The translations under genes and the position numbers were made by a program. Below, one piece after another: positions 22,133-39,026 of a stretch of DNA of 64,000 bases; position 1 is the first letter of the stretch; each line of letters opens with the position of its first letter. The notes beneath the pieces were generated by a model that was not told the DNA's origin, did not search any database, and saw only the letters and a program-made list of their open reading frames with translations. The stretch spans positions 4,122 to 68,121 of the forward strand of contig JBBIOJ010000008.1 of assembly GCA_037443445.1 (NCBI GenBank). The letters are read 5' to 3'. Source of the stretch: Desulfarculaceae bacterium (GTDB lineage: Bacteria; Desulfobacterota; Desulfocorpusculales; Desulfocorpusculum).

Positions 22133-22356
22133 TGCGAACCTCCCCCTTCACAATGGGGCCCCGGGGCTCCCGAGGCTGCTTGGAGTGAGTACCAAAGTAG
22201 CAAGCCCGTGTCAAGGGGGCCTGGGTTCTCGAAAACAGCCCAGGGTTCCCAGGGGAAAGGGGGGGGCGATCCAGGGGGAAGGCCCTGCCTTGCCAGATTG
22301 TGCTGAAGGGCCGGAAAGGATACCATTGGGATTCAGAGTCCTGCTCAGGGGAAAGC

Positions 22357-24090
22357 ATGCGTGCCAGGATAGCCTCCATAGAGAACCTCATAGCACAAGA
22401 CCCTGGCCATAGAAACATCTTGCCTCTCATCCAGCGGGACCACCTGCGCCTGGCTGCCATGAGCCTTCTGGGGGCCAGGCAGGTGCTCTTGACCAGCGGC
22501 TTCCCCATCCTCAAGGCACTCGCAGGAGAGACGGACGGCCCTCCAGGGGTCCTGGCCATTGGTCAGGCCCTCACCAGGCTGGGCATCCAGGTGGCGTACA
22601 TGACCGACAAGCGCCATGAACACCTGTTCCAGGCCATTGGCGCAATGCCCCTGATTCCTTTCGGGCCTGGGTTACTCCAAAAGCATGGGTTCTCTCACCT
22701 GGTGGCAGTGGAGCGGCCCGGAAGGGCCAGAGACGGCCGCTACTACAACATGAGGGGGGAGGAGATCACTGCACTGGTGGAGCCCCTGGACCGGCTTTTC
22801 ATGGAGGCCGAGCTGAGCGGCGCTCTCACCATTGGTATCGGGGACGGAGGCAACGAGGTGGGCATGGGCAGGGTCTTCAGGGGGGTGGCCAGGGCCATAG
22901 AAAATGGATCCAAGATCGCCTCCGTAGTGCTCACGGACTACGTGGTAGTCTCAGGAGTCTCCAACTGGGGTGCGTATGGCCTGGTGGGAGCCCTCTCAGT
23001 GCTGAGCGGCCAAGACCTCTTGCCCTCCGGGGATGAGATCAGAGAGACCCTGGGAAGGCTGGTCATGGCCGGGGCCGTGGACGGCCTGAGCGGCAAACCA
23101 GAACTCAAGGTGGATGGCCTTGAGCTGGAGCACACCTTGGAGCTGGTGGAGGAGATCCGGTGCCAGCTTCGCCCAGCGCCTTTGAGCCGGGTGAAAGGGC
23201 TTGAGGTGGGGGTGGTGGGGGCAGGCCGAAGCGGGCTGGCTGTAAGCCGATTGCTGGCTTCCCAGGGGGCCCGTGTGCGAATAACCGAGCAGCGCCACGT
23301 GGAGGTGCCCAGAGATCTGGAGAAGTGCAGTTGGGAGCTGGGTGGCCACAGTTTGGATTTCATGGAAGGGGTGGAGCTAGTTGTGCGGAGCCCAGGGGTG
23401 GACCCTCGCATTCCCCTCATCAGGGGGCTCAGGCAAAGGGGGGTCCCGGTTGTGAGTGAGCTAGAGGCTGCATTCCAGCTTGGTGAGCCAAAGCTGGTGG
23501 CCGTCACAGGAAGCAAGGGCAAGAAGAGCACCGTGGAGCTCCTGTCAGCCGTCATGGCCAGTTGCGCAAGACCAATTCCCATTGGTGGGAACAAAGGAAA
23601 GCCTCTTTCCGAGCTCCTGCTAGAAGACCCCCAGAACTGGATGGCCCTGGCAGTCTCCAGCTTTCAGATGGAAAGCATAGTGCGATTCAGACCGCGGGTG
23701 GCCGCCATACTGAATATCCTCCCTCTCCACCTGGACCGGCACCAGGACCCCGCAGAAACGGTCCGCATCAAGAGCCGCATCTTCATGAACCAGGGAGCAG
23801 AAGACCTGCTCATCTTGAACCATGACGACCCAAGGCTGAGACCCCTGGCAGAGAAACACTGGGGGGAGACGATGTGGGTCTCTTCCAGGGAGCCTGTGGA
23901 CAGGGGGGCCTGGATCCAGGGAAACGAGGTTTTCTTGGCTCCGCAGGGGGATGTGGTGGAACAGATAGGCTTTGAGGGCGCCATCCCCCCAGAGAACCTC
24001 CTAACCGCCATCTTGGCAGCATGGGCCCTGGGCATAAAGCCGGCTCAACTGCAAGGTGCCCTGGCTCACCTGGGACATCCAGGTTCATGA
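22357..24090 (+). CDS. Fusion of a DUF4392 (D-glutamate cyclase-like) domain and truncated, degenerate MurD N-terminal + middle domains
   Basis: ETDGPPG, VERPGRA.DG.YYNMRG, IGDGGNEVGMG, VSNWG, then GAGRSG, SPGV, SELE, VTGSKGK, VSSFQ, HLDRH, NHDD. Confidence 0.85.
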   Translation: MRARIASIENLIAQDPGHRNILPLIQRDHLRLAAMSLLGARQVLLTSGFPILKALAGETDGPPGVLAIGQALTRLGIQVAYMTDKRHEHLFQAIGAMPLIPFGPGLLQKHGFSHLVAVERPGRARDGRYYNMRGEEITALVEPLDRLFMEAELSGALTIGIGDGGNEVGMGRVFRGVARAIENGSKIASVVLTDYVVVSGVSNWGAYGLVGALSVLSGQDLLPSGDEIRETLGRLVMAGAVDGLSGKPELKVDGLELEHTLELVEEIRCQLRPAPLSRVKGLEVGVVGAGRSGLAVSRLLASQGARVRITEQRHVEVPRDLEKCSWELGGHSLDFMEGVELVVRSPGVDPRIPLIRGLRQRGVPVVSELEAAFQLGEPKLVAVTGSKGKKSTVELLSAVMASCARPIPIGGNKGKPLSELLLEDPQNWMALAVSSFQMESIVRFRPRVAAILNILPLHLDRHQDPAETVRIKSRIFMNQGAEDLLILNHDDPRLRPLAEKHWGETMWVSSREPVDRGAWIQGNEVFLAPQGDVVEQIGFEGAIPPENLLTAILAAWALGIKPAQLQGALAHLGHPGS

Positions 24091-24252: not shown

Positions 24253-25623
24253 ATGCGAGAAGATGCCAGGGCGATTTTCCAGGCTGCCCTGGCTGCAGTG
24301 GACCCCGAGGAGGCAGTTCTCAGGCACCTTAAGCTGGATGGGGAGCTCCTCCAGGTGGGGGAGTTGGGCCTGGAGTTAAACAGGTTTGAGAAGATCTGGA
24401 TCTTGGGTGCCGGAAAAGCCAATGCGCCCATGGCCCGCGCCTTGGAAAGGCTGCTGGGAGACAGGATCTCAGGGGGATTGATAGTGGTAAAGGAGGGCCA
24501 CGGCCTGAACTTGGGGCGGGTACAGGTTTGGGAGGCCTCGCATCCCCTGCCTGACCAGAGGGGCGTGGAGGGGACCAGCAGGGTGCTCCAACTGGCAAGC
24601 AAAGCCGGCCCAAGGGACTTGGTCTTGGCTCTTTTTTCAGGGGGTGGATCAGCCTTGCTGGTGGCCCCAGCCCAGGGGCTCTGTCTTGAGGACAAGCAGC
24701 AGACCACAAGAGTGCTCCTGGCATGTGGGGCCACCATCCACGAGATCAATACTGTGAGGAAACACCTCTCCCTGGTCAAGGGCGGCCAGCTGGCCAGGGC
24801 CTGTTATCCGGCCACGGTACTCAGCCTGATCCTGTCGGACGTGATAGGGGACGACCTGGATGCCATAGCCTCGGGGCCCACAGTCCCTGACACCAGCACT
24901 TACGCCCAAGCCAGGGAGGTGCTCCTGAAGTACGGGGTCTGGGGAAGTGTCCCGGAAGCTGTAAGGGAAAGGCTGGAGGCGGGCTGCCAGGGAAGACTTG
25001 AGGAGACCCCCAAGGCGGAAGACCCCTGCTTTCAGAACACCCACTGGAAAATACTGGGGAGCAACCTAGAGGCACTAAAGGCTGCCAAGGTCCACGCCGA
25101 GAAGATAGGTTACAGGGCTTTGGTGCTCAGCTCGGGCATGGAGGGGGAGGCCAGAGAGGTGGCAAGGGCCCTGGCAGCAATGGCCAAGGAGGTGCTCAGA
25201 TCCGGGAATCCCATACCGGCTCCGGCATGCCTACTTTGCGGTGGTGAGACCACCGTGACCCTCAGGGGCGGTGGGAAAGGAGGCCGAAACCAGGAGTTTG
25301 TGCTGGCAGCGGCCATGGCCCTGGAGGGCTGGGAGAATGTGGTGGTTCTGAGCGCAGGCACCGATGGGACAGATGGTCCCACTGACGCGGCAGGGGCTTT
25401 GGCAGACGGTAGCACGGTACAGAGGGCTCGCAAAACCGGTCTTTCGCCTGAGGCCCATCTCATGGAGAACGATTCCTACAACTTCTTCAGGTCCTTGGGT
25501 GAGCTCTTGGTTACGGGGCCTACCAGGACCAATGTGATGGATGTAAACATCTTCTTGATGCGTGAGTCCAAGGTAAGAACTTGCTTCGGCTTCAAACAAG
25601 AAGGGGGAAAAAAGTTGGAATGA
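24253..25623 (+). CDS. Class II glycerate kinase (MOFRL/TtuD family)
   Basis: GAGKA, SHPLPD, SGGGSAL, KGGQLA, GGETTV, GGRNQE, TDGTDGPT, TNVMD. Start uncertain. Confidence 0.93.
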   Translation: MREDARAIFQAALAAVDPEEAVLRHLKLDGELLQVGELGLELNRFEKIWILGAGKANAPMARALERLLGDRISGGLIVVKEGHGLNLGRVQVWEASHPLPDQRGVEGTSRVLQLASKAGPRDLVLALFSGGGSALLVAPAQGLCLEDKQQTTRVLLACGATIHEINTVRKHLSLVKGGQLARACYPATVLSLILSDVIGDDLDAIASGPTVPDTSTYAQAREVLLKYGVWGSVPEAVRERLEAGCQGRLEETPKAEDPCFQNTHWKILGSNLEALKAAKVHAEKIGYRALVLSSGMEGEAREVARALAAMAKEVLRSGNPIPAPACLLCGGETTVTLRGGGKGGRNQEFVLAAAMALEGWENVVVLSAGTDGTDGPTDAAGALADGSTVQRARKTGLSPEAHLMENDSYNFFRSLGELLVTGPTRTNVMDVNIFLMRESKVRTCFGFKQEGGKKLE

Positions 25624-25721
25624 GAGAAGAACGGCAGGCCAGACCCTGTGAACAGAGATTGTGGAGGGAGGGGCTGCCTCAAATTGGAATGGGGAACTCA
25701 AAAAAACAGGGAGGAAGATCC

Positions 25722-28610
25722 ATGGGGAGGCTTTTGGTTGCTCTTTGGCTTGCGACTTTGGCTTTGGTGGGGCTGGCCCAGGCTCAGGAACCGGTTCTCA
25801 TCGGAAGGGTGGCACACATAGAAGGAGGGGTGCTTCGGTACGTGACCGTGGAGGACGACTGGGTGGCAACCGTGGCCGACTCTCCCCTTAGGGCAGATGA
25901 CATCATATACACCGAGCCTGCGGGGAGGGCTGAGTTCATATTCCCCAACAACACCTGGGTTCGGGTGGATGGAAACACGGGTGTGGATGTGGTTGCCCTG
26001 AGAAGGGATCTCACTGGCATTTACGTGGATGGGGGAGTGCTGCGGGTTTACAACAGGAGCCAGGAGGCTCTGGTGAGGGTGGAGACCCGCCTGGGTTACC
26101 TGGCTGCTGAGCCAGGGGACGTGGTGGATCTCTACGTGGGGGACGAGGATATCCAGGTCATAGCCCTGGAGGGCTCTCCCAACTTCTTTTACATAGGCAG
26201 GGGCAGAGAGGAGATCCGCTACGAGGTCCTGGCAGACGGCCCGGCCATTTTCGTTGACGAGATGAGTGTGGAGGCGGCCGAGCCCCTGGTGGACAGGGAC
26301 TGGGAAAGCTGGAACTACAAGAGGGATCAGCTCCTGGCCGAGCGCAGGCGGGTTCGCTCAGCCCATCTCCCCGAGGCTTTTCAGTACGATGCACAGGTGT
26401 TCGAGACCCAGGGCAGATGGGAGAGGGTCTATTACAGGGAGAAATACGTCTGGTGCTGGACACCCATCCATGTGGACGTTAGCTGGAGGCCCTTCACGGT
26501 GGGGCGCTGGACCACATACTACGAGGAGAACGTGTGGGTTCCTTATGAGCCCTGGGGTTGGGTGACACATCACCACGGGCACTGGATACAAGTGGAAAAC
26601 AGGTGGTGGTGGACGCCATACGTCTCTGTGAACGTGGTGACTCCAGGGGTGGATGTGAGGGTGGATGTGGGAGTCCCCCCTCCGCCGGACTACTACTGGT
26701 ACTGGCATCCGGGACGTGTGGCATGGATCCACAGCGAGGTGCACGTGGGATGGTTCCCCCTTGCCCCATGGGAGCCGTACTATGGCTGGTATCCATGGTA
26801 CGGGAACACGGTGGTAGTGAACAACACCAACATAACGAATATCAACATCAACATCTCCAATTACAATTATTTCAGTAACGCGGTGGTAGTTAATTACAAC
26901 AACTTCTACAATGTGCCATACGGTAACAACTATATTCAGAATAATGTCATAAACGTGACCAACGTCAACAATACAACTATAATAAACAATTACCATGCGG
27001 CTCCTGTTATCCACAAGACGGTGATAAAAAATCAAAATTTTTTCAAGAATCAATATAATTTTTCCGACCGGCAAATTGTTTACAAGCCGCATCACTCGGT
27101 CGTGGAGAAGGCCTCCTTTGCCAAGAGCAGTTTTCAGAAACACGGGTTCACCAGTGCTGCCGATTATCACGGCAAGCGGGACAGGGTTCTCAAAGCAGAT
27201 CCCCCCCTGGGGGATGCGCACAAAAGAGCGCGGGGGCTGGCGGCAGCCAACAAGCTCGTAAAGCCGGAGGAGGTGAAAAAGCCGGCGGGTCAGATGAAGT
27301 TCGGCTCCAAGGAGCCCAAGCTTCAGGCAGAGAGGCCCAAGCTGCACGAAGCCGAAAAGCAAAGCTCAAGGCAGATAAAACAGGCAGCCTCCCAAGGGGG
27401 ACTCGGCCGGGAAGGTCGCACCGGAAGACCGGGGAAAGGGGGCCTCCAGGAGGCCACCGGGAAGGCAAGGGATGAGAAGCCGGGGGTTTCCGGGGGAAGA
27501 AGGGGCAAGGAGGATTCCCTGAGGCCCACCGGTCAGGAAACAAGACAGGACAGGCCCCCGAGGGACAGAGATGTGAAGCTGCAAGGGGAAGGCAGAAAGG
27601 GAGTGGTGGAGGACTCTGGAGGCCGGGCAGGCAGACGCCTCAGGCCAGAGCAGGAAGTGAAGCGTGGTGAGCTCAAGAGCGGAGCCGGGTCAGGTGAACC
27701 GGAGAAAACAAGCCAGGGAGGTCAAAAGCGGGTAGAGGGCAGGCGCACAGGCCGGCCGGGGCCTGCCGGAGCTGAGACAGGGCTAAAGGGCATGGAAAAA
27801 CAAGGCGGCGCGGCCCAGTTGGAAGACCGGCCCGGCCATGGCAGGAGGGACACAGAGAAAGCCACCAGGTCAAAGGGGCTGGACAGGCCAGAGGAGGCCA
27901 AGGGACATGGCCAGCCTTCCATGGAAAAGCCCAAACAGAGGGGTCTCCAGGAAGGCTCCTCCAGGGGGGAGCCCCAAAGCAGCACAGGCGGCCCCCAGAA
28001 GCCTCAGGACAGACTCAAGGCCTCAGGGCAGGAGCAAAAACCGGACAAACAGAAATCTTCCCAGGGCCCTGGACAGGCAAGACAGGAGCTGAGACCCGGA
28101 CAGGAAAGAAAACAGCTCCAAGAACAGGGACCCTCGCACCAAGGCTCCCACCAAAGGCAGCAGCAACCAACACAGGAGCAGGGTAGACAAAAACCCAAGC
28201 AGCAGCTCCCAGAGCAGCAAAAGCCCAAACAGCAAGGGCAGGTTCACCAGGGACAACCCCAAATGCAGCAGCAGCACCAGGGCCAGCAAAGACAGTTGCA
28301 GCAACAGCAGCAGCAACACAAACAGATGCAGCACCAGCAACAACAGCCAAGACAGGAGCTAGGAGGCCAGAAACCCAAGCAGCAGCTCCCAGAGCAGCAA
28401 AAGCCCAAACAGCAAGGGCAGGTTCACCAGGGACAACCCCAAATGCAGCAGCAGCACCAGGGCCAGCAAAGACAGTTGCAGCAACAGCAGCAGCAACACA
28501 AACAGATGCAGCAGCCAGGCCCTCAGGGCCAGCGCGTCCAGCAGCCGCAGCACGAGGACCCACAAAAGAGGAAAAAGAAGCCTCAGCATGGAGAGCAGCC
28601 CCAGCAGTAA
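25722..28610 (+). CDS. Secreted FecR-like + DUF6600-like protein with an Asn-rich segment and a long disordered Gln-rich tail
   Basis: GGAGG RBS and signal peptide. WRPF..GRW...WVPYEPWGWVTHHHGHW...VGWFPLAP.E. Low-complexity C-terminal half. Confidence 0.85.
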   Translation: MGRLLVALWLATLALVGLAQAQEPVLIGRVAHIEGGVLRYVTVEDDWVATVADSPLRADDIIYTEPAGRAEFIFPNNTWVRVDGNTGVDVVALRRDLTGIYVDGGVLRVYNRSQEALVRVETRLGYLAAEPGDVVDLYVGDEDIQVIALEGSPNFFYIGRGREEIRYEVLADGPAIFVDEMSVEAAEPLVDRDWESWNYKRDQLLAERRRVRSAHLPEAFQYDAQVFETQGRWERVYYREKYVWCWTPIHVDVSWRPFTVGRWTTYYEENVWVPYEPWGWVTHHHGHWIQVENRWWWTPYVSVNVVTPGVDVRVDVGVPPPPDYYWYWHPGRVAWIHSEVHVGWFPLAPWEPYYGWYPWYGNTVVVNNTNITNININISNYNYFSNAVVVNYNNFYNVPYGNNYIQNNVINVTNVNNTTIINNYHAAPVIHKTVIKNQNFFKNQYNFSDRQIVYKPHHSVVEKASFAKSSFQKHGFTSAADYHGKRDRVLKADPPLGDAHKRARGLAAANKLVKPEEVKKPAGQMKFGSKEPKLQAERPKLHEAEKQSSRQIKQAASQGGLGREGRTGRPGKGGLQEATGKARDEKPGVSGGRRGKEDSLRPTGQETRQDRPPRDRDVKLQGEGRKGVVEDSGGRAGRRLRPEQEVKRGELKSGAGSGEPEKTSQGGQKRVEGRRTGRPGPAGAETGLKGMEKQGGAAQLEDRPGHGRRDTEKATRSKGLDRPEEAKGHGQPSMEKPKQRGLQEGSSRGEPQSSTGGPQKPQDRLKASGQEQKPDKQKSSQGPGQARQELRPGQERKQLQEQGPSHQGSHQRQQQPTQEQGRQKPKQQLPEQQKPKQQGQVHQGQPQMQQQHQGQQRQLQQQQQQHKQMQHQQQQPRQELGGQKPKQQLPEQQKPKQQGQVHQGQPQMQQQHQGQQRQLQQQQQQHKQMQQPGPQGQRVQQPQHEDPQKRKKKPQHGEQPQQ
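28191..28513 (+). repeat. Exact 143-nt intragenic duplication, offset 180 nt
   Basis: 28191-28333 is identical to 28371-28513. Confidence 0.9.
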
Positions 28611-28619
28611 GACTGGCCA

Positions 28620-28652
28620 GGGGGGTCATCCACCCGGTGTGGATGACCCCCC
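28620..28652. terminator. Strong hairpin between convergent genes
   Basis: GGGGGGTCATCCAC-CCGGT-GTGGATGACCCCCC, 14-bp perfect stem, no long U tract. Confidence 0.6.
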
Positions 28653-28774: not shown

Positions 28775-29701
28775 CTAATCATGGGCTTTGGCGGGCTGGA
28801 CCTTGCCGCCTTTCCCCTCCTTGAGGAGATTTCGTTCGTAAGCCAGGCGTTCTTCCAGGGCCAACCTTTCGTGTATCTGGCTGAGGGCTAGGTGGCAGGC
28901 CCTTGGGTCCATGCCCAGATGCAAGGCCCTCTCATAAGCCTCCTGCGCTTCCCTCCAGCGGCTCAGCTGGTAAAGGAGCTTTCCCAGGCCAAGGAAGATC
29001 TCCCCTCTGGAAGGTGCGATCCTGGAGGCTTGCCGCAGGTGGCTCAGAGCCTCCTCCAGCGAGCCTGTCTCGGCTAGGATACCAGAAGCTTTGAGATGTG
29101 CTTCCAGGTCCATGGGGTTTCCCTTGGCAGCCTCCTTAAACAAGGATAAGGCCCTTTGCTTCTCGCCTCTTGCTTCGGCTGCCAGGCCCAACCCAAAATG
29201 GGCATTGGCCCAGGCCGGATCCCTCTTCAGAGCCAGTGAAAAAGCTTTCTCAGCATCCTGGATGCGGCCTTGCCTCAAATAGAAAAAGCCCAGGTGGGAA
29301 GGGGCTAAAGGTGAGTCCTTGTCTGATTCCATGGCCTTGCCAAGTGATTTTTCCGCCTCTGGGAGCTCTCCCTGGGTCTCCTGTATGGAAGACAGGTTGA
29401 CCCAGGCTGCTGTGTACCCAGGATGGGTGGCCAGGATGGCCAGGTACTGCTCTCGGGCCAGATCCAGGCTGCCTTGATCCTGGTAAAGCACGCCCAAGTT
29501 GAACCTGGGGGCCGGGTCCCTTGGATTTAGTTCTATGGCCCTTCGGTATTCCTGGGCCGCCTTCAGGAGCTCACCCCTGTCCTGGAAATTCACCCCCCGG
29601 TTGTAATGGTTCACCGGGGAAGTGGCGCAGCCAGCCAGAAATCCGGCCAGAACGGCCCAGAAAACAAAGGGTCTTACAGGCTCACTCTTATTCCTTGCCA
29701 T
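28775..29701 (-). CDS. TPR-repeat lipoprotein
   Basis: Lipobox FLAGC followed by multiple TPRs. Overlaps the mlaD stop. Confidence 0.88.
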   Translation of the reverse strand: MARNKSEPVRPFVFWAVLAGFLAGCATSPVNHYNRGVNFQDRGELLKAAQEYRRAIELNPRDPAPRFNLGVLYQDQGSLDLAREQYLAILATHPGYTAAWVNLSSIQETQGELPEAEKSLGKAMESDKDSPLAPSHLGFFYLRQGRIQDAEKAFSLALKRDPAWANAHFGLGLAAEARGEKQRALSLFKEAAKGNPMDLEAHLKASGILAETGSLEEALSHLRQASRIAPSRGEIFLGLGKLLYQLSRWREAQEAYERALHLGMDPRACHLALSQIHERLALEERLAYERNLLKEGKGGKVQPAKAHD

Positions 29702-30746
29702 GGCGTCCTATCCTTCCGCGCGCACGCCACTCCTCCGGGCCCTTGGGGGGGCCTCCCAGGCTCGGGTCCCCGTCCTGTTTCCAGACTATTTTCCAGGGGT
29801 GGGCTCTGAGGTCCTCGCTCAGGGCCTGGAGATGCCTGGATGTCTCCTCCAGTTGCAGCAAGAGCAGGTAGATGTTCTGATCGTTCACATCCAGGACATG
29901 GCGGGCATCCTTCACAAGTCCCTTGGTCTCCACCAGTCCCTCCTGCGCCTGGCCCAGCACGGGCAGCAGGTGGGCCTCGAGTCTGGCCATGCGCTCTTGG
30001 AGGGAGCGGTTTGTCTCCCTCAGCTCCTGGAGCAAGCCCACCAGCTCCTGCCCTCCTCTTCCCAAGGTGTTGTTCAGTTGCCGGGCAACCCCTTCCACCG
30101 AACCGGAAAGCTTTTTCATGGAGCCCTGGGAGGTGCCCAAGAGCTCGTCCACCTTTCTGAATATGCCCTCCAGATCCCGGTTCCTTTGCCTTAGCTCCTC
30201 CAGGAAAGCCGCAGCGTTTTGCACTGCCTGGGGAATGGTGCCCCCTGCCCTGATTTCCTTGATCATGCCCTGGATCTCACCCAGGGTTTGCTCCAGCCCG
30301 CTGGCTATGCGCTGTCCTGTCTCCAGGATCTCGGACATGGAAACCGGAGTCTCCCCATCCAAACTCTCCCCAGGCCCGAGTTCCGGGGCTTCGGGGGAGC
30401 CGGGGGAGATCTCCACATACTTGGCCCCCATCATTCCCAGGCTTCTTATGTAGGCTCTAGAGTCCTTTCTCACACGGATCTGTGGATCCAGCCGGAGGCT
30501 CAGGGCAATGCGATCCTCCCTCCCCGGCGCCATGGCCACCTTGCTGACCTCCCCCACCTCCATACCAGCGTACCAGACCGGGGAGCCCTTGGAGATCCCA
30601 TCTGCGTACCTGAACAGCACCACCACCTCGCGCTTGTCCTCCCAGAGGCTGCCCATGTCGCTGATCAAGAAGATCCCCACCACCAGGATGACAGCCGAGA
30701 CAAGGATCAGGACGCCCGAGCGGATTTCTGAACGGAATACTTCCAT
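29688..30746 (-). CDS. mlaD: MlaD/MCE-domain protein with long helical extension
   Basis: N-terminal TM, GISKGSPVWYAGMEVGEV, GMMGAKYVEISPG, HPWKIV. Confidence 0.9.
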   Translation of the reverse strand: MEVFRSEIRSGVLILVSAVILVVGIFLISDMGSLWEDKREVVVLFRYADGISKGSPVWYAGMEVGEVSKVAMAPGREDRIALSLRLDPQIRVRKDSRAYIRSLGMMGAKYVEISPGSPEAPELGPGESLDGETPVSMSEILETGQRIASGLEQTLGEIQGMIKEIRAGGTIPQAVQNAAAFLEELRQRNRDLEGIFRKVDELLGTSQGSMKKLSGSVEGVARQLNNTLGRGGQELVGLLQELRETNRSLQERMARLEAHLLPVLGQAQEGLVETKGLVKDARHVLDVNDQNIYLLLLQLEETSRHLQALSEDLRAHPWKIVWKQDGDPSLGGPPKGPEEWRARGRIGRHGKE

Positions 30747-30840
30747 GCCTCTGACCTCTCCTTATGCTTTGGCTGCTTCAATGAATCTTTGTTGTCCACT
30801 GCCCCCGAATAATGCTGACTCAGAGCCGGGTCGCACTGTC

Positions 30841-31665
30841 TCATTCCATGTCCAAGAGATCCTCCAGGTAGTCCCGGCTGGACTGCCTGAGGGGTATGGG
30901 TCCATCCGGGCTGCCGGCCAGGAACTGTTGTACCAGGGGATCTTCAGAGCACCTTATCTCCTCCGGGCTTCCCTGGGCCACCACCTTGCCCTTGAAAAGT
31001 ACCACAATCTTGTGGGCGATGCGGAAAGCACTTCTTGTGTCGTGGGTTACCACCACAGAGGTGATCCCAAGCCTCCGGCTCAGGTCCCCTATGAGTTGAT
31101 CTATGACTCCGCTTACCACAGGGTCCAACCCTGAGGTGGGTTCGTCGTAGAAGACTATCTCGGGGTCCAGAGCCAGGGCCCTGGCCAGAGCAACCCGCTT
31201 CTGCATCCCCCCGCTTAGCTGGGCAGGCTTCAGGTGCTCGAAGTCCCTAAGGCCCACCAGCTCCAGCTTCATTTTCACTATCATGCCTATGATCTTCTCT
31301 TCCAGGCGAGTGTGCTCCCTAAGGGGCAGGGCGATGTTGTCCTTGACTGTGAGGGAGTTGAGCAGGGCACCACCCTGGAAGAGCATGCCGAAGCGCTTCC
31401 TGTAGGTCTCCATCTCCTCCTCTGTGAAACGGGTCATGTCCCTGCCTCTTACCCAGATGTGCCCGGAGTCGGGCCTTAGAACACCTATGAGATGCCTGAG
31501 AAGGGTGCTCTTGCCGCAGCCACTGCCTCCCATTATGGCTGTGACCTGTCCCTGGTGAATGTCCAGGTTTATCCCATCCAGCACGACCCTACCCCCGAAG
31601 GTCTTGACCAGATCTTCAACCCTGATGATTACATCTTGCGCCTGGCGGGTCTCAACTCCGTTCAA
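30841..31665 (-). CDS. mlaF: MlaF/Mkl-type ABC ATPase
   Basis: GGSGCGKS, LFQGGALL, LSGGMQKRVALARA, DEPTSGLDP. Confidence 0.93.
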   Translation of the reverse strand: MNGVETRQAQDVIIRVEDLVKTFGGRVVLDGINLDIHQGQVTAIMGGSGCGKSTLLRHLIGVLRPDSGHIWVRGRDMTRFTEEEMETYRKRFGMLFQGGALLNSLTVKDNIALPLREHTRLEEKIIGMIVKMKLELVGLRDFEHLKPAQLSGGMQKRVALARALALDPEIVFYDEPTSGLDPVVSGVIDQLIGDLSRRLGITSVVVTHDTRSAFRIAHKIVVLFKGKVVAQGSPEEIRCSEDPLVQQFLAGSPDGPIPLRQSSRDYLEDLLDME

Positions 31666-31677
31666 GGCCGTTCTACC

Positions 31678-32469
31678 TCACAGAAACAAGTAAAAGAGGG
31701 TGGTGAAGAAACAGTCGGCCAGGATTATGAGGATCAGGGAGGTGACCACAGAGACCATGGTGGAGCGACCCACCCCCTCTGCCCCTCCCTTGACCACAAA
31801 GGCCATGTAGCAACCCACCATTGCTATTATGAGGGCGAACACAACGCTCTTGACCAAACCCGTCAGAACGTCCTTAAGGAGCATTGCCTCCAAGGCTGTC
31901 TCTATGTAAAGGCTGGAGCGGATCCCCACAGCTGTGGTACCCACCACGTACCCACCCACCATGCCCACCAAGTCTGCCACGATGGTCAGGCAAGGGAGCA
32001 TCACCACCATTGCCAAGAGGCGGGGCACAACCAGGTACGCGATGGGATGTATGGCCATCACCTCCAGGGCCAGGATCTCCTCCGTGACCATCATGGTGCC
32101 CAGCTCTGCAGTGAAGGCTGCGCTTACCCTGCCGGCCACCACTATGGCGGTCAGAAGAGGGCCCAGCTCTCTGGTCAAGGCCACACTGGAGAGGCTTGCC
32201 GCATAGTTCACTGCCCCGAATTTCTCCAGCTGGTACGCGGTCTGGAGCACCAGGATGATACCTATGAAAAAGGAAACCAGGCACACAATGGGAAGGGACT
32301 TGACACCCACCTCGTCCATCTGGAGGAAAACAGAGTGAACCCTCAAGGGTTTCCCCTGCAGGGGCTTCAGAATGGTCCAGCGAAGCGTCTCCAGGAAAAG
32401 GTAATAGATGCTGCTCAGGTGCTTGAGGAAGATCAGGACGGGAGTCTCTCCCCGTTCTGGCTGGCTCAT
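31678..32469 (-). CDS. mlaE: MlaE-family permease
   Basis: RELGPLLTAIVVAGR, AELGTM...E.I.ALE.M, GGAEGVG. Confidence 0.93.
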   Translation of the reverse strand: MSQPERGETPVLIFLKHLSSIYYLFLETLRWTILKPLQGKPLRVHSVFLQMDEVGVKSLPIVCLVSFFIGIILVLQTAYQLEKFGAVNYAASLSSVALTRELGPLLTAIVVAGRVSAAFTAELGTMMVTEEILALEVMAIHPIAYLVVPRLLAMVVMLPCLTIVADLVGMVGGYVVGTTAVGIRSSLYIETALEAMLLKDVLTGLVKSVVFALIIAMVGCYMAFVVKGGAEGVGRSTMVSVVTSLILIILADCFFTTLFYLFL

Positions 32470-32810
32470 CTCCGAAGCACCTCCTCAAAGGCCTCCTCCA
32501 CTTGGGGGACCACCCGGAAAACCTCCATCAAGTGGGCCACCTCGAAGGCTGCACTCACAGAGGCGCTGAGACCCGCCAGTGCGAACTGTATGGACCTCCT
32601 TTGTGAGAGCTGAAGCCCCTCCACCAACGTGGCGATGCCCGAGCTGTCCATGTAGGGAACCTCGGAAAGATCCACCAGGACTAATCTGGTGCCAGGGCAA
32701 AACAAAGGCACCAGGAGCTTTCTGAGCTCCGGGGACGTGCTCATGTCCACCTCTCCCTGGGGTCTTACCAGGTAGACCCCAGGGGCCCTTTCCTCCACCA
32801 GCACCTTCAT
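32466..32810 (-). CDS. STAS-domain anti-anti-sigma-factor-like protein
   Basis: GEVD, DLSEVPYMDSSGIATL with the phosphorylatable Ser motif. Confidence 0.92.
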   Translation of the reverse strand: MKVLVEERAPGVYLVRPQGEVDMSTSPELRKLLVPLFCPGTRLVLVDLSEVPYMDSSGIATLVEGLQLSQRRSIQFALAGLSASVSAAFEVAHLMEVFRVVPQVEEAFEEVLRR

Positions 32811-33250
32811 GGCGAACCTCCCTGCCTGTGTCTGAAAAGCACAAGCCTAAGAAGGCAACCCTTCTGCCCCGGTACCTCCTCGTAGTGCACCTCGTCCGCG
32901 CCTGCCCTTATCAGGTGAAGCCCGAGGCCCCCGGGCCTGAGTTCTCCCAGATCCCTTGGGATGAGCTTAGAGGGCTCGGGCGGCAGGGCAAAATCCCTTA
33001 CCTGCACCTCGAGGCGTTCCTGGCAGAAGCTGAACTTGAGGGAGATGCGCTCCTGGCTCCTTCCTCCGTACGCGTGTCTGATCACGTTGGAGCAGGCCTC
33101 GTCCACGGCCTGGGTGAGGCGAATGACCCTTTCCTCCGGGAAACCCAGGTGCCTGGTGAGTCTTTCCACGAGGCAACGCACCAGGAAAAGCGCCCTTGGG
33201 TCCCCCGGGATCTCCATGAGCACCGGTCCGCTCAGCTCTTGCTGGGGCAT
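32807..33250 (-). CDS. RsbW/SpoIIAB-like serine kinase (HATPase_c)
   Basis: AVDEACSNVIRHAY, VRDF, GGLGLHLI. Confidence 0.9.
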   Translation of the reverse strand: MPQQELSGPVLMEIPGDPRALFLVRCLVERLTRHLGFPEERVIRLTQAVDEACSNVIRHAYGGRSQERISLKFSFCQERLEVQVRDFALPPEPSKLIPRDLGELRPGGLGLHLIRAGADEVHYEEVPGQKGCLLRLVLFRHRQGGSP

Positions 33251-34551
33251 GGCTTGCCAACCCCCAAGGCAATCATGGTCACATCATCGGCCTGGGGGGC
33301 ATTTCCCTTGAATCTTTCCACGGCCTCCACGAGGCTCTCTATGACGCCTTGGGCCGAGGAAGAGCCCGAAGAAGCCAGGGCAGCTTCTATCCTTTCCCAG
33401 CCGAAGCTCTCCCCCCTTGGATTTCGGGCCTCCAGGAGCCCGTCCGTCAGCAGGAGCAGACAGTCCCCCTCTTCCATTCTGAAGCTGTAAGAACGGTAGC
33501 ACAGGCTTTCCAGGATTCCCAGAGGAGGCCCTCCCTTGCTCCAGAGCCTAGAGGGCCGCCTCGCTCCTGGTCTCCATAGAAGGGGTGGGAGATGCCCTGC
33601 ATTGACAAAACGCACCTTTCTGCTGGCAGGCTCCAAGACAAGATAAAGCAGGGTGACAAAGGCACCCCTTTGGCCATTGCGACAAAGCTCGGCGTTCATC
33701 TGGTTCAGCAGCCGGGAGGGGCTTCCCACCTGCAGAGCCCTTGTCCTGAAATCAGAGGTAAGTCTTGCCATGTAAAGGGCAGAGGCCACCCCCTTACCCG
33801 AGACGTCTCCGATGAGCAGACCCCAACGCCTTGCCTTCAAGGGGATAAAGTCGTAAAAATCTCCGCCCACCTCCAGGGCCGGACTGTAATGGGCTGAGAA
33901 GCTGTAATCCTCCACCCTGGGAAGCTCCCTGGGTAGAAAGCTGTGCTGCACAATGGAGGCCAGGGCCAAGTCCCTGTCCATTCTTTCCTTCAAGACAAGG
34001 GCCTCATGCATCCTGGCGTTCTCTATGGCTACGGCCGCATGCCTGCAAAGGTCTGTGAAAGTCTCCAAGTCCTCAGGGGTGAAGGGTCTGTTGTCCAACC
34101 TGTTTATCACCTGGGAGACCCCGATGATCCTGTCTTTCACCTTGAGGGGCACACAAAGCATGGAGCGGGTCCTGTAGCCTGTGCGCTCGTCGAACTCCCT
34201 GTGAAATCTGGGGTGCTTGTACGCGTCTTCCACCAGGAGGGGCTCCCCGCTTTCACACACAAACCCGGCTATGCCTTGCCCTTTGGGCAGCCTGAAACCT
34301 TCCTTGAGCCTTTCACCCACCTGGCCCTGGGCCACCTGGAAGACCAGCTCCCCGGATTTTTCGTCCAGGAGCAGGAGGCTGCTGGCATCTGCCTGCATGA
34401 TTTCCCTGGAGGTTCTCATTATGCGATCCAGGACTTCCCCCAGGTCCAGGGAGGAGCTGATAAGCCGAGAGACCTCCATGCACATGGAAAGCCTCTGAAT
34501 GCGCTCCTGGCAGCTTCGCAGCAGGGCCGCAAGATCCTCCCGAGTGTCCAT
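33232..34551 (-). CDS. GAF + PP2C (RsbU/SpoIIE-like) phosphatase
   Basis: GAF motifs GIAG and D.RTGY.TRS.LCVPL. PP2C motifs GGDFYD, GDVSGKG, NAGH, TDGL, DDVT. Confidence 0.93.
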   Translation of the reverse strand: MDTREDLAALLRSCQERIQRLSMCMEVSRLISSSLDLGEVLDRIMRTSREIMQADASSLLLLDEKSGELVFQVAQGQVGERLKEGFRLPKGQGIAGFVCESGEPLLVEDAYKHPRFHREFDERTGYRTRSMLCVPLKVKDRIIGVSQVINRLDNRPFTPEDLETFTDLCRHAAVAIENARMHEALVLKERMDRDLALASIVQHSFLPRELPRVEDYSFSAHYSPALEVGGDFYDFIPLKARRWGLLIGDVSGKGVASALYMARLTSDFRTRALQVGSPSRLLNQMNAELCRNGQRGAFVTLLYLVLEPASRKVRFVNAGHLPPLLWRPGARRPSRLWSKGGPPLGILESLCYRSYSFRMEEGDCLLLLTDGLLEARNPRGESFGWERIEAALASSGSSSAQGVIESLVEAVERFKGNAPQADDVTMIALGVGKPCPSKS

Positions 34552-34552
34552 C

Positions 34553-34939
34553 TCAGTCTCCCATGGGCTCCAGCTGGACCTGTTCCTGGAAACTCTCCAA
34601 CAGTCTGTTGCAAAGCTCGCGGAAGCTCTCAGGGCTCTCGGTTTCCACCACAAGGCCCCCGTCATCGAATACCTTGAGGCGGCAGTAAGGTTTGGCAATC
34701 TCCAGAAACAGCTTGGGATCCACGGTTATCCAGCCTTTCATCCTGCCAAGCAGCTCCTCCCCTGTGAATGGCCTCTCAAGGGTCAGATCCACCTTTCTGA
34801 ATCGGCCACGCCAGCCCACCCGGGCGGGGGCCACCAGCATGGGCTGCACCGGATCTCCCATGGCCGCGCACCTGAACCACAGTCTTGCCCTTACCATGGC
34901 CATCTCCCAAGGATCCTGCCTCAAAACGGCTTCAAGCAT
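34553..34939 (-). CDS. Hypothetical protein, first gene of the switch/Mla operon
   Basis: Stop abuts the phosphatase start. Typical codon usage. Start uncertain. Confidence 0.7.
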   Translation of the reverse strand: MLEAVLRQDPWEMAMVRARLWFRCAAMGDPVQPMLVAPARVGWRGRFRKVDLTLERPFTGEELLGRMKGWITVDPKLFLEIAKPYCRLKVFDDGGLVVETESPESFRELCNRLLESFQEQVQLEPMGD

Positions 34940-36839: not shown

Positions 36840-39026
36840 GTGGAAAAGCACAGGCAGGATCAGGAAATCCGGGAGCGCCTGTTCAAAGTGCTGAGGGAAT
36901 TCCCGGTCCTGTACAGGGCGCGGTTGGGAGTGGGCACAAGGCTGCTCAACCCCTTCCAGCCCCTTCAGCATGTGGTAAGCACCCACGTCAATCCCCTGAT
37001 CTTGTACATAAATGACCTTGTGGAGGAGATAAAGTCGGGGGTTCCTTATCTGGAGGCCCTGGAGCGGGTCGTGCTCTTCGCCGTGCGCTACCCTTACAGG
37101 GACCGAGTCAGGGAGGCGGTGGATCAGCTGATCTCCATAGAAGGGGATCGGCCTTACTTCATGTGGGGGCTGGCGCATCTGGCCAGAGCAGAGGATGCGA
37201 CCACCAGGGGTGCCAGACTCAGGGAGTTTCACCGCCGGCTCTACCTCATGAACAAGTATTACAAGGAGCACCTGGAGATCAAGGGGGATCACGACCTAAT
37301 ACCTTGGCGGGCTTCCTTCCGGGCCCAGGCGGATGGAGTGACCGAGGGCTCCTACGAGTTCCCAACCAGAAGAGAACTGGAAACCTTTCGAAACGCCCTC
37401 CTGTGCCTTGCAGATCTTTGGGCCACCAGGTGCCGGGGAGGCCGGGCCCGCAAATCCCTGGGGGCCAGGATCCATGGGGAAATGGAGCAATTGGGCCGGC
37501 TCTTGTTCGACTACGGTTACACTGTGCAGGAGATCTGCGGAAAACTGAGAAGGGATGACTTTTCCCTGCCCGAGTTCCTCAACGGGCTTCTCCTCCAGGA
37601 GCTGCACAAGAGCCTGGTTTCCCCCATGGACACGGCCAGTGCCTCCAGGCACATCCTGGGCCTCACGCTCTTGGATTTTGTTTCAGTGGTGCCTTTCAGG
37701 ACGTTTTATTGCAGAGTTAGCCGCACCAAGGAAGCCATGGAGATGGCCAAAGAGGTGGAAAAGAGGCTGGGCTCCAAGAACAGCCTGTACAGGAGGGTGC
37801 TGGAGCTCTACCTGGGCTACCGCGAGGTGCAACCTCCCCTTGCCGCTTACTACCTGGAATACCGCTTCAGCAAGGCCCACGGCGACTACTTCCCGGCCAA
37901 GAGCGGTGAGCACTTCGGGGTGGACATAACCAAGAAGTTTTTCTTCAAATACTTCGACCAGCAGACAGTGCAGGAAGAGGCCACCCAGGCGGCCAAGAGA
38001 CTTTACAGTTCAAAGACCTCCCAGGAGGTGGTGGAACTTCTCCAGCTCTTGCTCTCGGCCCTTTCCCGTCCTGATACAGTAAGAGGCAGGCAGGTTCACA
38101 TTCTGGGCCACATTCAGTCCGGGGCCATGGGAAGGGTGCTTTTGGGTGTTTACAAGGCCGAGATAGTGGCCCTGAAGGAGGCAGTGGTCCCTGCGGGCTC
38201 CTCCATGCCCCTTAGCGAGAAAGTCAGGCAGCTGGAGTATGAGGGCCGCATACACGGTCATGTCCAGTCCGGGGAAAAACAACACGAGAACATAGTGGAA
38301 TGCTTTGGAATAGTGGAGGAAGAGGGCCGAAGATACCTGGCCATAGGTTACCATCCGGCAGAGACCCTGGGATCCCTGATAAGAAGACTTCAGAGTGCCC
38401 TGGCCAGAGGGAGAGGCCCCAGCCGGGTGCTTAGTCTGGGAGAGTTCGGGCTCATCGCCTCGCAACTCCTGAGCGTGCTTGCCCATCTGCGCTCCAGGCA
38501 GGTGATCCACCGGGATCTGAAGCCTGCCAACCTTCTGTATCTGGTGGACGAGACAGGTCGGCTGAGCCTCATCAAGCTGATAGACTTCGGGGTAGCCCTG
38601 GGCTTGGCCGAGGGATTGCCCAAGGACATGTTCAGGCGCCAGGTGGTGGGCACCATGGCTTACATGGCCCCTGAGGTGGTCATGGCCCAGAGTTCCTATG
38701 CCTCGGATCTCTATTCTGCAGGGGTCATTCTGTACCAGCTGATGAGCGGGGGGCTCCCCTTGGAGCTGGCCAGGCCCAAGAGCCGAGAAGATCTTAAGAT
38801 GCAGCTAAAACGCGTGGTGACAGAAAAGAGGAGGCCCCTTCTCCAGGCCAACCCAAGCCTGGGGAAAGAGCCCTATTTGAAAAGGCTTGCAGAGCTCGTG
38901 CAATCCATGATCCGCATGGATCCCACAACGCGCCCGCCCGTGGATCTCCTGGAGCGGGACTGGGAGGAAGCCTGGTCCCAGCTCCCACCAGAGGTTCTGG
39001 AAACCCCATTCCCTTATGGTCCCTGA
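36840..39026 (+). CDS. Hanks-type Ser/Thr protein kinase with a large unknown N-terminal region
   Basis: SGAMGRV, VALK, HENIV, HRDLKPANL, DFG, YMAPE, SDLYSAG. No obvious TM segment. Confidence 0.9.
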   Translation: MEKHRQDQEIRERLFKVLREFPVLYRARLGVGTRLLNPFQPLQHVVSTHVNPLILYINDLVEEIKSGVPYLEALERVVLFAVRYPYRDRVREAVDQLISIEGDRPYFMWGLAHLARAEDATTRGARLREFHRRLYLMNKYYKEHLEIKGDHDLIPWRASFRAQADGVTEGSYEFPTRRELETFRNALLCLADLWATRCRGGRARKSLGARIHGEMEQLGRLLFDYGYTVQEICGKLRRDDFSLPEFLNGLLLQELHKSLVSPMDTASASRHILGLTLLDFVSVVPFRTFYCRVSRTKEAMEMAKEVEKRLGSKNSLYRRVLELYLGYREVQPPLAAYYLEYRFSKAHGDYFPAKSGEHFGVDITKKFFFKYFDQQTVQEEATQAAKRLYSSKTSQEVVELLQLLLSALSRPDTVRGRQVHILGHIQSGAMGRVLLGVYKAEIVALKEAVVPAGSSMPLSEKVRQLEYEGRIHGHVQSGEKQHENIVECFGIVEEEGRRYLAIGYHPAETLGSLIRRLQSALARGRGPSRVLSLGEFGLIASQLLSVLAHLRSRQVIHRDLKPANLLYLVDETGRLSLIKLIDFGVALGLAEGLPKDMFRRQVVGTMAYMAPEVVMAQSSYASDLYSAGVILYQLMSGGLPLELARPKSREDLKMQLKRVVTEKRRPLLQANPSLGKEPYLKRLAELVQSMIRMDPTTRPPVDLLERDWEEAWSQLPPEVLETPFPYGP

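Follow-up and report, generated by a model that had tools for sequence, protein, structure and literature searches.

A STAS protein with an adjacent kinase and phosphatase encoded beside an Mla-type transporter in a Desulfarculaceae bacterium: a candidate phosphorylation switch

Organization of the gene cluster

The window analyzed here is a stretch of 64,000 nucleotides (nt) from a Desulfarculaceae bacterium (GenBank assembly GCA_037443445.1, contig JBBIOJ010000008.1, positions 4,122 to 68,121 of the forward strand). Between positions 34897 and 28775, entirely on the minus strand, it encodes a hypothetical protein, a GAF-PP2C phosphatase, a kinase, a STAS protein, MlaE, MlaF, MlaD and a TPR protein, in this order (Table 1). 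The cluster genuinely unites two known systems, one MlaFEDB-like and the other RsbUVW-like, and their union is conserved; by strict membership it belongs neither to the MlaB family nor to the sigma-regulating systems.

The gene order and identities had been proposed in a first-pass annotation made from the letters alone, and both were borne out by domain matches and coordinates. The overlapping stops and starts that it described from the phosphatase through to mlaE are also present: the phosphatase and kinase genes overlap by 19 nt, and the kinase/STAS and STAS/mlaE junctions are ATGA overlaps of 4 nt each. The remaining junctions comprise gaps of 1 nt (hypothetical/phosphatase), 12 nt (mlaE/mlaF) and 94 nt (mlaF/mlaD), and an overlap of 14 nt (mlaD/TPR). 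Judged by the gene overlaps alone, the cluster is probably co-transcribed. A promoter scan returned 2 sites versus 1.1 expected, a number near chance level. As annotated, no sigma factor, mlaC or mlaA lies within the cluster. An mlaA and two mlaC genes were found elsewhere in the genome, one of the latter inside a mlaEFDC locus that lacks a STAS gene. No plasmid match for the STAS protein was obtained at E 1e-15.

Table 1. Features of the cluster (window positions) and related split loci. aa, amino acids.
Feature	Position	Strand	Remarks
Conserved hypothetical protein, 114 aa	34553..34897	-	Adjacent passenger, outside the core
GAF-PP2C (SpoIIE/RsbU-type) phosphatase, 439 aa	33232..34551	-	Pfam GAF 4.6e-23, SpoIIE 8.4e-51; stop at 33232
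RsbW/SpoIIAB-like Ser/Thr kinase, 147 aa	32807..33250	-	HATPase_c_2 6.9e-24
Free STAS protein, 114 aa, YMDSSG motif	32466..32810	-	TIGR00377 above cut-off
STAS Ser56 codon	32643..32645	-	Aligned to SpoIIAA S58, RsbV S56, E. coli MlaB T52
MlaE permease, 263 aa, without fused STAS domain	31678..32469	-	PF02405 4.6e-76; TIGR00056 above cut-off
MlaF ABC ATPase, 274 aa, TTG start	30841..31665	-	Best NCBIfam model PRK11831 MlaF
MlaF helical-subdomain helix, candidate STAS-binding patch T119, M132, K133	31261..31320	-	Equivalent to E. coli T114, M127, K128
MlaF C-terminal extension (handshake), Y266, L270, L271	30841..30930	-	Equivalent to E. coli Y261, L265, L266
Long MlaD, 352 aa: membrane anchor, MCE domain, helical stalk, HPWK, 37-aa tail	29688..30746	-	PF02470 7.6e-19
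TPR protein, N-terminal LAG-C25	28775..29701	-	Lipobox-like motif
Planctomycetota split loci (other genomes)	L004-L007, L015, L020; L260-L269		kinase-STAS-mlaE separated from the likely mlaF(-mlaD)

Conservation of the linkage

The linkage of kinase, STAS and mlaE genes is far beyond chance, as judged from the best 80 of 592 metagenome relatives. In these, mlaE follows the STAS gene within 1 kilobase (kb) at 71 of 80 loci (6 without, 3 cut off). The kinase gene lies ahead of the STAS gene at 73 of 80 (2 without, 5 cut off). Neighboring genes were no criterion for selection; the counts describe a subfamily, because the search pattern was built from linked STAS proteins. When species genomes were searched with the STAS protein, 49 loci were obtained. 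In the best 21 of these mlaE lies directly downstream, and the kinase lies directly upstream in 20 of the 21, the remaining locus being at a contig cut; among the other 28 loci the arrangement recurs only in L033. The expectation that the operon linkage is conserved is thus upheld in both collections.

The core of the module is kinase-STAS-mlaE, and the phosphatase is often encoded elsewhere. Unlinked SpoIIE-type matches were found in 4 of 5 searched Acidobacteriota and Planctomycetota genomes without an adjacent phosphatase. By database labels, the module occurs in about five phyla, comprising families of the Desulfobacterota as well as Planctomycetota, Acidobacteriota, Nitrospirota and Hydrogenedentota. 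Its distribution in its own phylum is patchy, with matches in 12 of 301 genomes. In 10 of these, mla genes lie beside the STAS gene; the other two, which match most weakly, have PP2C-STAS-RsbW clusters that lack mla genes. Within the family, 5 of 6 other members carry the subfamily.

The genome G133 (locus L270, C144:1-3011) displays a rearranged form, mlaF-mlaE-short mlaD-STAS with an ATGA overlap, and a convergent kinase gene at the contig end. In loci L113, L114 and L129 the gene next to the kinase-STAS pair is either a broken mlaE or already the TPR gene, a possible case of transporter decay or of assembly error.

The STAS protein

The STAS protein lies outside the MlaB family, because its score with the family model NF033618 is 21.5 bits, where the cut-off is 90, and because it has a full SpoIIAA fold. 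The predicted model (predicted local distance difference test, 95) includes a strand at residues 99-101 and a helix at 104-113, and so departs from the minimal STAS fold of MlaB, which has no fifth strand and no C-terminal helix. The best fold matches are anti-anti-sigma proteins (Z 18.4, root mean square deviation 1.6, 111 residues aligned), and the D22/R25 docking pair is kept by the STAS protein of the module.

An hhalign comparison with MlaB (probability 82%) pairs S56 with T52, I59 with L55 and V63 with L59, so that a Ser/Thr opens helix 2 and hydrophobic residues occupy the positions of MlaB L55 and L59. S56 is invariant in 99 of 99 STAS rows. The subfamily also carries a signature in helix 2, A60/T61/E64, with A60 in 98/99 and E64 in 99/99 proteins, versus G60 in 31/34 and E64 in 0/34 of the other free STAS proteins, a comparison that covers the 34 of 55 matches with a readable motif. 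The partner MlaF displays the MlaB-binding surface and a C-terminal helix, described below. Taken from the sequences, the STAS protein likely works like MlaB rather than being MlaB. The earlier description of it as a phosphorylatable MlaB therefore stands in part: the MlaB-binding surface of its partner is there, and membership in the MlaB family is not.

Four related STAS-MlaE fusions (L222, L228, L237 and L256) have an Asp at the phospho-position, a possible natural phosphomimic.

The kinase, the phosphatase and the other candidate partners in the genome

Residues R25, E51, N55, H59 and D86 of the kinase and its GGLG motif are invariant in 21 of 21 rows. The first four align to the functional residues R20, E46, N50 and H54 of SpoIIAB. 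The Gly of the G1 box is replaced by Ala in the kinase of the cluster and in some relatives. Of 37 full-length phosphatases of the module, 31 carry the four catalytic PP2C motifs. The PP2C phosphatase, GHKL kinase and STAS phospho-acceptor of an RsbU/V/W system are therefore all encoded with intact motifs, and a cognate SigB/F/G-type sigma factor is missing from the set. The GAF-PP2C phosphatase is likely the signal input, and homology and adjacency make it likely that the kinase phosphorylates the serine of the STAS protein.

The host genome is 99.94% complete. It contains one Pfam STAS match, that of the cluster, and local hidden Markov models run at full sensitivity detected a single free STAS protein, a single SpoIIE-type domain and only one RsbW-like kinase with a strong match. 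A second, weaker SpoIIAB-like gene (L059:2061-4694, contig C16) was considered as a partner and rejected, since it belongs to a hydrogenase-type cluster without a STAS gene. By eye, small redox-type and HATPase genes surround it, and NADH-dehydrogenase-like genes adjoin.

The absence of a sigma factor from the operon, noted in the first-pass annotation, extends to SigB/F/G-type factors in the genome at large. The ten sigma-70 factors of the genome are RpoD, an RpoD-like protein, an RpoH-type protein, FliA and six of the extracytoplasmic function group, and none reaches the SigB/F/G cut-off. Among 31 genomes that carry the module, some of them incomplete or closely related, none has a protein that passes the cut-off of the corresponding model TIGR02980. 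In G245 and G133, two module genomes with a completeness of 100%, no FliA was detected. Because of these two results, a sigma-type output is unlikely to be the universal role of the module.

The predicted STAS-binding surface of MlaF

The best solved relatives of the MlaF in the window are the MlaF chains 7d06, 6z5u, 7ch8 and the E. coli structure 6xbd. It aligns without gaps to E. coli MlaF and keeps T114, M127, K128, Y261, L265 and L266 (E. coli numbering). In E. coli, T114, M127, K128 and Y261 contact MlaB (PMC7784689), and Y261, L265 and L266 take part in the C-terminal handshake (PMC7367683).

An unbiased scan of all alignment columns, comparing 46 MlaFs linked to the module with 28 others, ranked positions 114, 117 and 121 highest (E. 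coli 120, 123 and 127). These form one face of a helix that is hydrophobic in linked MlaFs and mostly charged in the others. The Tyr and Leu of the tail and position 98 were also top-ranked. Forty more loci were added after the scan for the class counts, and two of the 47 complete linked MlaFs, L018 (long extra tail) and L033 (frameshift-rich locus), were excluded from the count alignment. The M127 position is occupied by M, I, L or V in 46/46 linked MlaFs (about 19 effective sequences), in 20/22 encoded beside an extended MlaE, in 0/43 beside a short MlaE and in 1/3 without an MlaE in view. The N-terminal MlaE extension scored as STAS-like in 18 of the 22 extended-MlaE loci, and no STAS was detected in the 2-4 kb of flanking sequence inspected per short-MlaE locus. 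A Tyr or Phe in the tail was found in 45/46 linked MlaFs, 0/22 of the extended-MlaE and 0/43 of the short-MlaE class. T114 and K128 discriminate less, as they are also kept in 32/43 and 23/43 short-MlaE MlaFs, respectively.

The three mlaEF loci of the host genome repeat this pattern, with M at the M127 position in the MlaF of the window, L beside the N-terminally extended MlaE and K in the short-MlaE mlaEFDC locus. The pattern also extends to sequences outside the sample. In 5 of 5 Planctomycetota genomes that encode kinase-STAS-mlaE away from mlaF there are two MlaFs, of which exactly one combines patch and tail and the second lacks the patch; no mlaE was detected within 1.5 kb of the patch-bearing MlaF. 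The short tails of the STAS-less group match the shorter MlaF extension found without MlaB in Veillonella (PMC10665443). These comparisons, together with the single free STAS protein in the genome, suggest that the transporter ATPase is likely built to bind a STAS protein.

MlaD, the TPR protein and the periplasmic side

The closest solved structure to MlaD is PDB 13hr, a 312-aa MCE protein. The LAG-C25 motif near the start of the TPR protein is presumably a lipobox. A TPR gene follows mlaD in 17 related loci, and a PqiC-like PF03886 gene takes that place in 3 scanned loci. The length of the MlaD tail, counted from the HPW-like motif, varies with the next gene: with groups assigned by hand, it is 33-40 aa in 17/17 loci with a TPR gene, 15-18 aa in the 4 loci where a PqiC-like gene comes next (three of them with a confirmed PF03886 match) and 9-20 aa in 11/13 loci with neither. 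The TPR protein is predicted to take the place of the PqiC-like lipoprotein of other loci. PA3213 and PqiB each bind an outer-membrane lipoprotein through a C-terminal peptide (PMC13631591), and the tail lengths suggest that the TPR protein may hold the MlaD tail. Bridging of the periplasm by the long MlaD and the TPR protein is plausible because tail length tracks the TPR gene.

The transporter departs from the six-component Mla system (MlaABCDEF), which has a short MlaD together with MlaC and MlaA. MlaE, MlaF and a long helical MlaD are shared with the Mpc and PA3211-14 hybrids; the PqiC-like lipoprotein of those hybrids and the STAS-fused MlaE seen in MpcE are replaced here by a TPR protein and a 263-aa MlaE.

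A proposed phosphorylation switch and its alternatives

We propose that the STAS protein is an MlaB-like subunit of MlaFED whose Ser56 is phospho-switched by the adjacent kinase and phosphatase, thereby gating the transporter, and we put the probability of this reading at roughly 0.65. A signal sensed by the GAF domain would activate the phosphatase, leaving Ser56 dephosphorylated, and the adjacent kinase would phosphorylate Ser56 and reset the switch. Helix 2 of the STAS protein would dock between the helical subdomain of MlaF and the C-terminal helix of the partner MlaF, as in E. coli. Because the same face of helix 2 would be used for the kinase and for MlaF, the two would compete for the STAS protein, with the phosphorylation state of Ser56 setting the partner. 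Unphosphorylated STAS would correspond to an assembled, active transporter and phosphorylated STAS to a released, inactive one. This sign is modestly favored over its opposite by analogy with E. coli, where MlaB with the mimic T52E binds MlaF less well and MlaF is not incorporated into the complex unless MlaB is present (PMC7367683). On the periplasmic side, hexameric long MlaD would span the periplasm, the TPR lipoprotein would fasten its tail to the outer membrane, and the cargo would be a lipid or another hydrophobic molecule.

Several observations weigh against this proposal. The STAS protein is closer to RsbV/SpoIIAA than to MlaB. Three further points weaken the favored sign. In E. coli, T52A kills the ATPase and leaves the complex intact, which its authors found hard to reconcile with simple phosphoregulation (PMC7367683, PMC5016091). 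Linked MlaFs have R or K immediately before M127 (46/46), where E. coli has M, and four STAS-MlaE fusions of one clade carry Asp at the phospho-position. The MlaF classes are largely clades: on a quick tree for which helix and tail had been left out of the alignment, 4 changes of class label suffice, so the class counts amount to few evolutionary events. The linkage is also incomplete: among the best 80 metagenome loci, mlaF lies within 2.5 kb in 36/54 informative cases (18 without, 26 cut off), the phosphatase is adjacent in 28/57 (29 without, 23 cut off), and the six loci noted above have no mlaE after STAS; L153 has no kinase beside STAS-mlaE. FliA is present in 26/31 module genomes versus a phylum background of 77/121.

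The closest alternative retains the wiring with the opposite sign, so that phosphorylated STAS, freed from the kinase, would bind or activate MlaF and the phosphatase would turn the transporter off. It is counted as a sub-case within the figure given above and is a serious, if lesser, possibility. The R/K before M127 and the invariant K128 could form a phosphate pocket, the four fusions with Asp all lie beside an MlaF with that R/K, and the loss of ATPase activity in E. coli T52A points the same way; the weakened binding of T52E does not. Helix geometry suggests, moreover, E64 of the STAS protein, the residue that sets the subfamily apart, as another possible partner for the extra R/K; covariation of E64 with the MlaF R/K in fused systems is not clean. 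A reversed flow of information, in which STAS would bind MlaF as a sink or sensor and the real output would be another partner of the kinase (FliA, the housekeeping sigma factor or another regulator), appears unlikely. It would explain the full anti-anti-sigma fold, the retained docking pair and the frequency of FliA, and there is a precedent in the chlamydial module that acts on the housekeeping sigma factor (PMC8256260). It is opposed by the lack of SigB/F/G in the 31 genomes, by the two complete genomes in which FliA was not found and by the absence of a sigma gene from the cluster of the window, the scan having covered that cluster and not the related loci.

Two further readings are improbable, to about the same degree. 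An ordinary partner-switching cassette might simply share a transcript with an MCE transporter, its STAS protein never touching MlaF. The RsbV-like sequence and fold of the STAS protein and its MlaB score far under the cut-off agree with such an arrangement, and sigma-less modules with other outputs exist (SypA/SypE, BtrUVW; PMC8256260). The hydrophobic patch and terminal helix of MlaF, absent from STAS-less MlaFs, speak against it, as do the lack of another free STAS protein in the genome and a linkage that persists through rearrangement in G133 and splitting in Planctomycetota. Alternatively, the STAS protein might be a constitutive MlaB-like subunit, with the kinase and phosphatase merely buffering or chaperoning the free pool and exerting no gating. 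STAS-MlaE fusions and E. coli MlaB work, in the sources available, without a known kinase, the phosphatase is often non-adjacent, and L153 lacks an adjacent kinase; on the other side, the kinase is adjacent in 73/75 informative loci with invariant catalytic residues, and unlinked SpoIIE-type phosphatases are present in 4 of the 5 Acidobacteriota and Planctomycetota genomes searched.

Relation to known systems

Sigma-less STAS modules in which the STAS protein is the output include SiaABC and HsbA/HsbR of Pseudomonas. The same holds for Vibrio SypA/SypE and Bordetella BtrUVW (PMC8256260), whose targets, as far as the available text goes, are unknown or signaling proteins and not a transporter ATPase. 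The Bacillus RsbU-RsbV-RsbW and SpoIIE-SpoIIAA-SpoIIAB switches share the PP2C phosphatase, GHKL kinase and STAS phospho-serine with the cluster and provide its best sequence and fold matches (PMC8256260, PMC11418112; PDB 6m36, 1th8). They differ in that no SigB/F/G was detected here in the cluster or the 31 genomes, the predicted output being an ABC ATPase, and in that helix 2 carries A60/T61/E64, whereas other free STAS proteins mostly have G60 and never E64.

On the transporter side, MlaE and MlaF are orthologues of those in E. coli MlaFEDB, the handshake and MlaB-contact residues are kept, and Ser56 aligns to Thr52. In contrast to E. coli, where MlaB is minimal (PMC7367683), the STAS protein is of the full SpoIIAA type with a fifth strand and last helix; a kinase and phosphatase lie alongside, MlaD is long, and MlaC and MlaA are not encoded in the cluster. 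Brucella MpcEFDA (PMC12436622), Pseudomonas aeruginosa PA3211-PA3214 (PMC13631591) and Veillonella MlaEFD (PMC10665443) have a periplasm-spanning long MlaD without MlaC, as predicted for the cluster. The STAS domain of Brucella MpcE is fused to MlaE (PMC12436622), whereas here it is free and kinase-linked. The Mla-Pqi hybrids resemble the cluster in the predicted anchoring of an MCE C-terminal peptide by an outer-membrane lipoprotein (PMC13631591), but theirs is PqiC-like and here it would be a TPR protein, which, if this is true, would be a previously unseen way of anchoring MCE stalks at the outer membrane.

Phosphorylation of MlaB on Thr52 was proposed by Thong 2016 (PMC5016091) and Kolich 2020 (PMC7367683). 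The latter states that there was no evidence for it, and neither paper names a kinase in its available text. The cluster supplies this question with a kinase, a phosphatase and a STAS protein beside an MlaF with an MlaB-binding surface, and it can be addressed in vitro because four small soluble proteins suffice. Among the literature matches listed, which leave most subscription journals outside coverage, no description of a kinase-phosphatase-STAS cassette with an MCE transporter was found. Grasekamp 2023 (PMC10665443) placed MlaABC mostly in Proteobacteria by means of an NF033618-based profile, on which the STAS protein of the cluster scores poorly. If the proposed switch is correct, STAS subunits would occur on MCE transporters well beyond the Proteobacteria, where that survey, in its available text, placed most MlaB, and a direct post-translational switch on an ABC motor would join the known outputs of partner switching.

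In an outgroup-rooted quick tree the kinase-linked MlaFs are spread across the unresolved base, where the STAS-fused, STAS-less and E. coli types are interspersed with them. All trees were quick trees of this kind. Because of this spread, the kinase-controlled form may be ancestral; a partner switch with an ABC motor as output and no transcription step, which in addition preceded both MlaB and the STAS-MlaE fusions, is a doubtful but conceivable extension of the phosphorylation switch.

The upstream hypothetical gene and neighboring features

The hypothetical gene had been annotated as the first member of the operon, with a start at 34939. The start is most likely at 34897, because three orthologues read from that ATG are 114 aa long and, in one, an in-frame stop immediately precedes it. 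As a conserved component of the system the gene was rejected, since only 4 of the 20 loci examined have it next to the module, and these four belong to the host's own family. Its protein has 2570 homologues, is present in 50/301 genomes of the phylum, often with two copies per Desulfobacterota genome, and belongs to an unnamed family of varied contexts with an invariant W-x-R-C-A-A near the start. The fold gave generic ferredoxin-like matches only (best Z 6.7), and atlas matches were weak (0.81).

Downstream of the cluster, a perfect 14-bp inverted repeat with a 5-nt loop lies at 28620-28652, between the convergent DUF6600 and TPR genes; it has no T-run and does not appear in the terminator-scan list. 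The FecR/DUF6600 protein (25581-28610) has a long Gln-rich low-complexity tail that contains a direct repeat with a period of about 180 bp, and a similar gene is also found 3' of the cluster in L001. A D-glutamate-cyclase-like domain fused to a MurD-like part is encoded at 22300-24090. On the other strand, 2 kb from the cluster, positions 36840-39026 encode a 728-aa protein with a C-terminal Hanks-type kinase domain preceded by a long N-terminal region without a Pfam match.

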